Shown here piece by piece: positions 10,833 through 12,506 of a DNA stretch of 64,000 nucleotides. The DNA lies in assembly GCF_003018115.1 (NCBI RefSeq), contig NZ_CP027457.1; one strand, given 5' to 3'. This stretch comes from Escherichia coli. GTDB taxonomy: Bacteria > Pseudomonadota > Gammaproteobacteria > Enterobacterales > Enterobacteriaceae. Position numbers and translations under genes: made by a program. A model generated the notes under the pieces. It was not told the origin of the DNA, made no database searches, and worked only from the letters and a program-made list of their open reading frames with translations. Position 1 is the stretch's first letter, and every line of letters starts with the position of its first letter.

Positions 10833-12506
10833 TTACCACCAGACTTCCGCCTGGATGCCGGCCATAAACTCGTCTTTGCTGTTCTCATTAAACTTAAAAT
10901 TCGATAATTCGTTATCCAGAATATTGATATACGTCCCATAGAAGCGAATTTCTGGTCGTGAACCTAAAATACTTTCACCCACTTTCAATGCATGCCAGAG
11001 TGTCGTTTTATAAGCCGATTCATTTAGTGTTACACCCTGCTGTGTTTTGTTCTGTTGCTTAAACCAGCCTAATTCAAGCCCCGTCTGATTCCATGTATTC
11101 CAGATCCAGGCCGGTCTTATTACGGTGCGAATACTGTCAAAATCACTATGAGCGCCACTTTCATAACTATAAACATCTTCGCCGTGAGAATAGACAAGCG
11201 CGTTAGCCATAATAATATTGTCAGTGAGATACATCTCGCCCTGAGAGATTAAACGCCAGGCGATCCCATTGGTATGGTCACCATAGTAATAGCGACCGTG
11301 CGCCATCGTGTTACTGGCATCTGAGAAGCTGGCAAAACTGCTGGCATAGGAATTATTGGCAACCTGTAACGTAAATTCATTAAACGTATCGCGTTGCAGG
11401 TTTTGCCGTAAAATAGAAGTCAGCATCCAGCTATCTTTCATTTCAAAATAGCTGTCGTCATTTTCATTATCTTGTTGTTGATCCGTTTTATTAGGTGCGG
11501 AATATTTAGCCATTAATGATAATGTCGCATCATCCCATAACGGGATATTGCGATAACGAACATCCACAGAATTGGTATTCATCTGGCTGGTACGCGTAAA
11601 ATCACGAGAGTAAACATCGACATCATCACGGCTTAAGGACATATCAAACAGCCCTACACCAAGCGCCCAGTTTTCAATCCCCACACCTGCGGCGACATCC
11701 GTGGTTAAGGTTTTCCAGTCCAGCATCTGGATCTCATATTGCGGGAGTTTATGTTTGCCGACCCAGAAGTCTGCCTCTGGCGCGAAGGGTAAAAAACCTC
11801 GCGTTGTCAGATAAATATCACTGAACTGCATGATATTTTCATTGGCACTGTCACCAAACCAGGCATCGTTATACTGCTCACCCACGTTGCCATCATAGGT
11901 AACGACCGCATTTGCCGTTTTACCGTCCTGATTATAGACACGCTGATTTAAGGTCAGGTCAAACCAACCACTCATCTCGTTACCAAAACGTCCCAGAGAA
12001 CCCGCTGCATAAGTTTGTGGTGAGCCGTGATTACCGGTACCCCAACCTGAGCGAAAGTACCCCTGATAGCTGAACCCAATATCATCTTTTATATATTTAC
12101 TGATATCTTTCATGGTCACGCTTTCGATAGTGGTTTTGTCGCCTTTACTTTCAATAACAGCAAATTGCTGCGATCCATTTATAGTATGCGCTGCGGCAGA
12201 CGAGTTCTGTTCACCGTTTTCATTTTTGATGTTGTCAGCGACGGGAGATGTCGCTGATATTTCAGCAAGCGAGGCTGATTTATATTTGTTTTCCGTAATA
12301 CTTTTTTGTAAGGTCGAAAGTCTGGATTTATATACTCCCAGTTCATTCTGTGTTGCTTTCAGCTCTTGTTTATTTTTCGACAATTCATTTTCAAGCAATT
12401 CAAGGCGCTGCTCTATGGTTAATTTTGTTGCCATCGCGTTCAACGGAAACAATGCCGTAAGAATAGAAAAAGACAAAAGGCTGACGTTAAGCGTCTTTAT
12501 ATTCAT
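10833..12506 (-). CDS. Carbohydrate-specific outer-membrane porin (LamB/ScrY family) with N-terminal coiled-coil extension
   Basis: Signal peptide, heptad-like region ([29 protein letters not shown]), aromatic-rich beta-barrel body, C-terminal ...EVWW. Confidence 0.8.

Follow-up and report, generated by a model that had tools for sequence, protein, structure and literature searches.

A LamB-family sugar porin with a ScrY/BglH-type N-terminal helix, encoded in a bgc-like operon of Escherichia coli

The bgc operon has been described as a set of five genes that encodes the IIB, IIC and IIA components of a phosphotransferase system (PTS) and a phospho-β-glucosidase, is associated with the GntR-type activator BgcR, and allows cellobiose, arbutin and salicin to be utilized (PMC3585215). 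The operon is grouped with the cryptic β-glucoside operons, which require mutation for their activation (PMC4488073). BglH (YieC), encoded in the bgl operon of E. coli K-12, is an aryl-β-glucoside porin (PMC2646131), and the N-terminal domain of ScrY, the sucrose porin, is referred to, in a passage of PMC6173795 that cites Dumas et al (2000), as a trimeric periplasmic coiled coil. The roles that have been proposed for coiled coils of porins are that of a trimer stabilizer, that of an extended slide for the sugar, and that of a guide to the inner membrane. Neelakanta, Sankar and Schnetz reportedly identified, in 2009 (Appl Environ Microbiol 75:2284), the fifth bgc gene as that of a porin, BgcH.

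Gene content and setting of the operon

The window, i.e., the whole stretch of E. coli DNA analyzed here (64,000 nucleotides of contig NZ_CP027457.1), contains a cluster of five genes on the minus strand and one divergently oriented gene on the plus strand. The first of the five (14337..14648) encodes the IIB component of a lactose/cellobiose-family PTS (Pfam PTS_IIB, NCBIfam, RefSeq). It is followed by the genes for the IIC component (12901..14223; Pfam PTS_EIIC, and TIGR00410 with 336.7 bits versus a cut-off of 236) and the IIA component (12562..12879; Pfam PTS_IIA, RefSeq) of the same family, by the porin gene (10833..12506) and, as the last, by the gene for a 6-phospho-β-glucosidase of the GH1 family (9369..10808; NF007154 with 1029 bits versus a cut-off of 624; RefSeq CDS of 1440 nt). 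The divergent gene (14847..15545, plus strand) encodes a GntR/UTRA regulator of the HutC type (Pfam GntR and UTRA), which fits the description of BgcR (PMC3585215). The initial annotation had placed the porin gene inside a PTS operon, which was borne out: it lies between the genes for IIA (55-nt gap) and the glucosidase (24-nt gap) on the same strand, the other gaps are 113 nt (IIB-IIC) and 21 nt (IIC-IIA), and a terminator scan found no minus-strand terminator-like site within the cluster from IIB to the glucosidase. Two of the gene starts differ, each by 6 nt, between the mechanical list of open reading frames (ORFs) and RefSeq: that of the glucosidase (TTG at 10814 versus 10808) and that of IIA (upstream ATG at 12879 versus 12873).

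The order IIB-IIC-IIA-porin-phospho-β-glucosidase, together with the divergent GntR regulator, is the one given for bgc; when the locus was compared with that description, gene content and order agreed and no difference was detected. Judged by this agreement and by the reported identity of the fifth bgc gene, the porin is apparently BgcH. The cluster of six genes (operon and regulator) is located between marB and eamA and is absent from K-12. As marB and eamA are adjacent in K-12, it represents an accessory island, apparently the bgc operon for β-glucosides/cellobiose, and the value of this assignment lies mainly in correct annotation. The operon was found in 47% of the complete E. coli genomes. 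Beside the bgc island, a second small accessory insertion was observed: a gene for a rhodanese-domain protein (17911-18306) and ftrA (∼1 kb downstream) sit between ydeE and mgtS in the window and are not at that position in K-12.

The gap between the IIA and porin genes contains a stem-loop of 11 bp (12531..12558, minus strand; UUUCCUCCAGU-GCGUUA-GCUGGAGGAAA), as judged by RNA folding; the predicted fold of 71 nt had an energy of −19.8 kcal/mol (z = −2.9). The terminator scan did not report the element, and the absence of a U-tract behind the stem sets it apart from canonical terminators. It could serve to balance PTS expression against that of porin and glucosidase, or to stabilize the mRNA. 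A CRP-like site with two mismatches (14717-14732, minus strand; TGTGATCAATGTACCA) was observed ∼70 bp ahead of the IIB start, within the divergent promoter region; sites of such quality occurred at chance frequency across the window in the CRP-site scan. Expression of bgc is said to depend on CRP, which the site would fit.

Domain layout and N-terminal helix of the porin

The porin ORF (10833..12506, minus strand) is intact and comprises 557 codons plus a stop codon; its assignment is based on the ORF list, matches to the Pfam profiles LamB and Sugarporin_N, RefSeq, and identity to BglH of K-12. An identical CDS is present in RefSeq as "carbohydrate porin" WP_001613088.1 (100% identity; several O169:H41 strains), and the exact protein is already public under that name on 442 contigs. 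Among 5426 complete E. coli genomes, 2553 contain the gene, nearly always at 95-99% identity. Outside the species, 110 orthologs (from Citrobacter, Salmonella, Enterobacter and Kluyvera) were collected, every one of them exactly 557 residues long and of the same layout; they provided 71 distinct N-termini. In E. coli NZ_CP053720.1 and NZ_AP027800.1, an insertion of the IS3 family splits the porin gene, which is therefore dispensable in those lineages. Database entries of 630-749 residues (P0002, P0004, P0005 and P0043 among them) join PF02264 and PF11471 to the GH1 domain PF00232. They probably result from read-through, via a stop codon or frameshift, into the neighboring glucosidase gene, or from assembly errors, and they are the reason why one protein cluster at 90% identity mixes the names "carbohydrate porin" and "6-phospho-β-glucosidase".

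A signal peptide was read from the sequence at residues 1-26 (12429..12506, minus strand), with K4 in the n-region, a hydrophobic core, and A-M-A preceding T27; the same layout is kept in the orthologs from Citrobacter, Salmonella and Kluyvera. The start codon is an ATG preceded by AAGGA at a spacing of 7 nt. No second hydrophobic stretch precedes the barrel. Thus, the possibility raised at the outset, that the porin start had been mis-called upstream of the real signal peptide, does not hold: the signal peptide coincides with the called start, and no further candidate for one occurs ahead of the barrel.

The layout of the mature protein was derived from an AlphaFold2 (AF2) monomer model, built on an alignment of 45 sequences (mean pLDDT of 83.7), in combination with profile searches and conservation. 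Residues 145-557 (10836..12074, minus strand) correspond to a β-barrel of the LamB family and of the 18-strand type, modeled with pLDDT > 90. The Pfam LamB profile (PF02264) matched residues 147-557 over its full length (1-378) with 276.4 bits versus a cut-off of 25.1. When the AF2 model was compared with known structures by Foldseek, the top matches were maltoporin (1MPR/1MAL), with TM scores of 0.76-0.78, and ScrY (1A0T/1OH2), with 0.77, at E-values of 1e-19 to 1e-27. The model and this comparison together point to an 18-stranded maltoporin/ScrY-like fold, with the barrel equally near to both. A phmmer search of the PDB sequences with the single porin protein gave no match at E ≤ 1; the LamB and ScrY structures were reached with a profile of 45 homologs. 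Based on an alignment that is uncertain in the loops, the channel-lining residues map to Y150, W181, F375 and W556 and to R152, R173, D183 and D263, and four of the six positions of the LamB greasy slide are aromatic, W74 being replaced by D214 and W358 by L514.

Behind the signal peptide and ahead of the barrel, the initial annotation had claimed a heptad-patterned segment of some 60 residues. Such a segment is present, but it spans ∼43 residues: a coiled-coil-type helix of six heptads at residues 31-73 (12288..12416, minus strand), supported by AF2, by enrichment of hydrophobic residues in the core, by conservation of that core, and by PF11471. The structure prediction that had been proposed as a check returned residues 31-73 as one unbroken helix, with moderate pLDDT of 71-81. 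The Pfam profile Sugarporin_N (PF11471, "maltoporin periplasmic N-terminal extension") matched residues 30-56 with 30.0 bits versus a cut-off of 25.7, and it also matched eight of 45 diverse members of the family. The heptad register places K28 (ahead of the helix), L35, L42, L49, L56, L63 and I70 at a, and I31, L38, N45, T52, Y59, L66 and N73 at d. Of the 12 hydrophobic residues within 31-73, 10 occupy one of the 13 a/d positions (p = 8e-6 in a hypergeometric test; p = 6e-5 after correction for the seven registers). This test was calibrated on the experimentally verified coil of ScrY, which gave comparable values (p = 2e-5 to 3e-7), on the linker of BgcH (0.35), and on windows of the barrel, the best of which, among 368, reached 7e-4.

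Conservation followed the same pattern. Across the 71 distinct ortholog N-termini, the mean entropy of the core positions was 0.37 versus 0.94 for the other positions of the helix (p = 0.015), and L35, L38, L42, N45, L49, L56, Y59 and L66 were invariant. The polar residues at d are conserved as well: N45 (12372-12374) and T52 (12351-12353) are invariant or nearly so, and N73 (12288-12290) is mostly conserved. Hartmann and colleagues are said to have described, in 2009, asparagine at d in trimeric coiled coils as holding ions in the core. Such a core would be consistent with a trimer. When the coil segment alone was searched against the PDB with phmmer, only non-significant matches were obtained (E = 0.13 to 2.8); all of them were coiled-coil or helical-bundle proteins, which is weak compositional support.

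The helix is followed by a linker at residues 74-131 (12114..12287, minus strand), which appears disordered (pLDDT mostly < 50, no secondary structure) and is of low complexity; its mean column entropy of 1.15 makes it as variable as the signal peptide, and proline occurs in it in the orthologs. A short and conserved helix at residues 132-142 (12081..12113, minus strand) then precedes the barrel, as indicated by AF2, with low to moderate confidence, and by column entropy. It is part of a motif, (L/M)KDISKY(I/V)KD(D/E)IGFSY, at residues 131-146 (window 12069-12116), the entropy of which (0.29) is at the level of the barrel. This motif is retained in BglH and in the distant representatives P0126, P0129, P0130 and P0133; candidate roles for it are those of a plug, of a periplasmic collar, or of a BAM signal.

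Proposed role and competing readings

The porin is very probably a LamB-family channel of the outer membrane that is specific for its sugar substrate, and a paralog of BglH that is cotranscribed with a cellobiose-family PTS and a 6-phospho-β-glucosidase under a divergent GntR-type regulator, and it would be BgcH. Its specificity for β-glucosides is suggested by homology. After cleavage between A26 and T27, residues 145-557 would fold into an 18-strand-type barrel and trimerize, judging from homologous porins, and β-glucosides (cellobiose, arbutin, salicin) would slide along the partly conserved aromatic track. The PTS would, likewise by homology, take up and phosphorylate the substrate, which the glucosidase would then cleave. 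The N-terminal 118 residues are expected to remain periplasmic, as in related porins. As in ScrY, the three helices of the trimer, of 43 residues each (31-73), may assemble into a coiled coil of three parallel strands, with each helix tethered to its own barrel through the ∼58-residue flexible linker. By analogy with ScrY, the coil might stabilize the trimer and/or prolong the path of the sugar into the periplasm as a low-affinity segment. A dedicated uptake of the operon's substrate across the outer membrane, as suggested in the initial annotation, is supported; it fits the position of the gene and the precedents of scrY in scr and bglH in bgl.

Could the heptads be a product of chance or composition, or could the N-terminal region lie outside the mature protein, as a mis-called start or noncoding sequence? 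Two of the statistics would allow it. The Fourier power of Kyte-Doolittle hydropathy at a period of 3.5 was not significant, with 1230 of 20000 local shuffles (6%) reaching the observed value, and it was non-discriminating, as windows of the barrel scored equally high; a succession of six L/I residues spaced seven apart (i, i+7) also arose in 1.9% of whole-protein shuffles. However, the a/d enrichment (p = 8e-6) is well beyond the minimum over the barrel windows, the core positions are selectively conserved, Sugarporin_N scores above its gathering cut-off, and the AF2 helix is continuous. Moreover, the called start opens the signal peptide and is preceded by a good ribosome-binding site, and the orthologs, all 110 of them, share length and layout. 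The heptad pattern is not due to chance, and a reading as artifact or as mis-called start, to which practically no credence can be given, is effectively refuted.

Other readings accept the helix and differ in what it, or the gene, is for. The coil could be an element that reaches out across the peptidoglycan and docks to a partner (PTS IIC, Lpp or the peptidoglycan), thereby coupling uptake at the outer and inner membranes. The periplasmic extension, with ∼118 residues, exceeds that of BglH (∼100) and of ScrY (∼72), its disordered linker varies whereas conservation is seen in the coil core and pre-barrel motif, and coiled coils of porins have been suggested as molecular guides to an inner membrane component (PMC6173795). 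Yet, the heptad core is of the kind typical of self-association, and Sugarporin_N also occurs in porins tied to different transporters, which argues against a specific docking partner; docking is unlikely. Even less probable is a more elaborate version, in which the long coil (with the invariant N45 and T52 at d), the 58-residue tether and the pre-barrel helix would form a trans-periplasmic device that docks the trimer on PTS IIC, or binds an ion or sugar in its Asn-at-d layers, and channels β-glucosides from one membrane to the other, in place of free diffusion. The gene could also be an evolutionary relic, with the porin, including its coil, unused under natural conditions. The bgc operon is listed as cryptic, requires mutation for activation, and has been reported as cryptic under laboratory conditions (PMC4488073), so that the porin may rarely be made; the IS3 insertions in the gene of some strains and the truncated or fused variants in the databases point in the same direction. 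In contrast, 2504 of the 5426 complete E. coli genomes carry at least 80% of the gene uninterrupted (95-100% identity), the gene is kept full-length at 76-83% identity in several genera, and conservation is concentrated in the barrel and the coil core. This intact spread and pattern of conservation indicate purifying selection, and therefore use, which leaves only a slight chance for a relic.

Relation to BglH, ScrY and LamB

The alignments to ScrY, BglH and LamB that had been proposed as a check placed the porin as follows: both ScrY and BglH match its N-terminal motif, and by sequence it stands closer to BglH (53% identity) than to ScrY (23%). That the architecture is of the ScrY type and not of the LamB type, as originally stated, was confirmed by the match to Sugarporin_N above cut-off and by the fact that LamB of K-12 aligns from residue 147 only. 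A similar division is seen among diverse representatives of the family: relatives of at least 36% identity have an N-terminal extension, of variable length, and the LamB-like ones (at most 34% identity) have none.

BglH, a cryptic porin, is the closest characterized relative. The identity of 53% extends over residues 20-557 of the porin, the coil included, and the two proteins have in common the LT(I/V)EQRLELLE motif of the coil, a variable linker, the pre-barrel motif, and, in an alignment that is uncertain in the loops, an identical pattern of channel-lining residues. The gene for BglH, too, is in a β-glucoside PTS operon next to one for a phospho-β-glucosidase. It is, however, at another chromosomal locus, in an operon with the IIABC protein BglF and the antiterminator BglG instead of split IIB, IIC and IIA genes and a GntR regulator, and the regular heptads of BglH number ∼3 (residues 30-51) versus 6 (31-70) in the porin analyzed here, about twice as many. 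Orthology with BglH was rejected in view of the identity of 53% and the different locus and operon; the porin is a paralog within a BglH-like clade.

ScrY (PDB 1A0S, 1A0T, 1OH2) has the same layout of signal peptide, periplasmic coiled coil, and 18-strand barrel of the LamB type, and its gene also belongs to a PTS operon. The sequence used for comparison was from a plasmid locus, scrK-scrY-scrA-scrB-scrR, which the ScrY query matched at 100%; in a tblastn search of plasmids with the porin, ScrY was not among the matches listed, two of which (H35 and H54) are other maltoporins. Besides the overall identity of 23%, there is a weak N-terminal match (motif TIEARLNALE). The coil core of ScrY is rich in Ala and Gln (IILLLAAAAAVL), whereas that of the porin analyzed here is a leucine zipper with conserved N45, T52 and N73. 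The extension of ScrY is shorter, its barrel starting at residue 97 versus 147, and its substrate is sucrose, as opposed to, presumably, β-glucosides. An assignment as the sucrose porin, i.e., as the ScrY ortholog, was rejected because of the low identity and because the genetic context is a cellobiose-family PTS with a GH1 enzyme and not scrA/scrB.

The maltoporin LamB shares barrel family and fold (PF02264) with the porin, at 25% identity, and Y6, Y41, F227 and W420 as well as the polar-track residues R8, R33, E43 and D116 of LamB are conserved in it, according to an alignment that is uncertain in the loops. LamB has no N-terminal periplasmic extension, the barrel following directly after the signal peptide, and it works with an ABC transporter instead of a PTS. 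The bgc porin belongs to the BglH/ScrY class with a periplasmic coiled coil. Its N-terminal coil is real but a known feature, common to ScrY and BglH, and the finding is correct but ordinary, since the architecture is represented in Pfam, experimental work on the coil of ScrY exists, and a description of the operon has been published. Among the three examples associated with E. coli, BgcH has the most regular coil of leucine-zipper-like type, for which reason BgcH could be a convenient model, albeit for an incremental question, next to BglH and ScrY.
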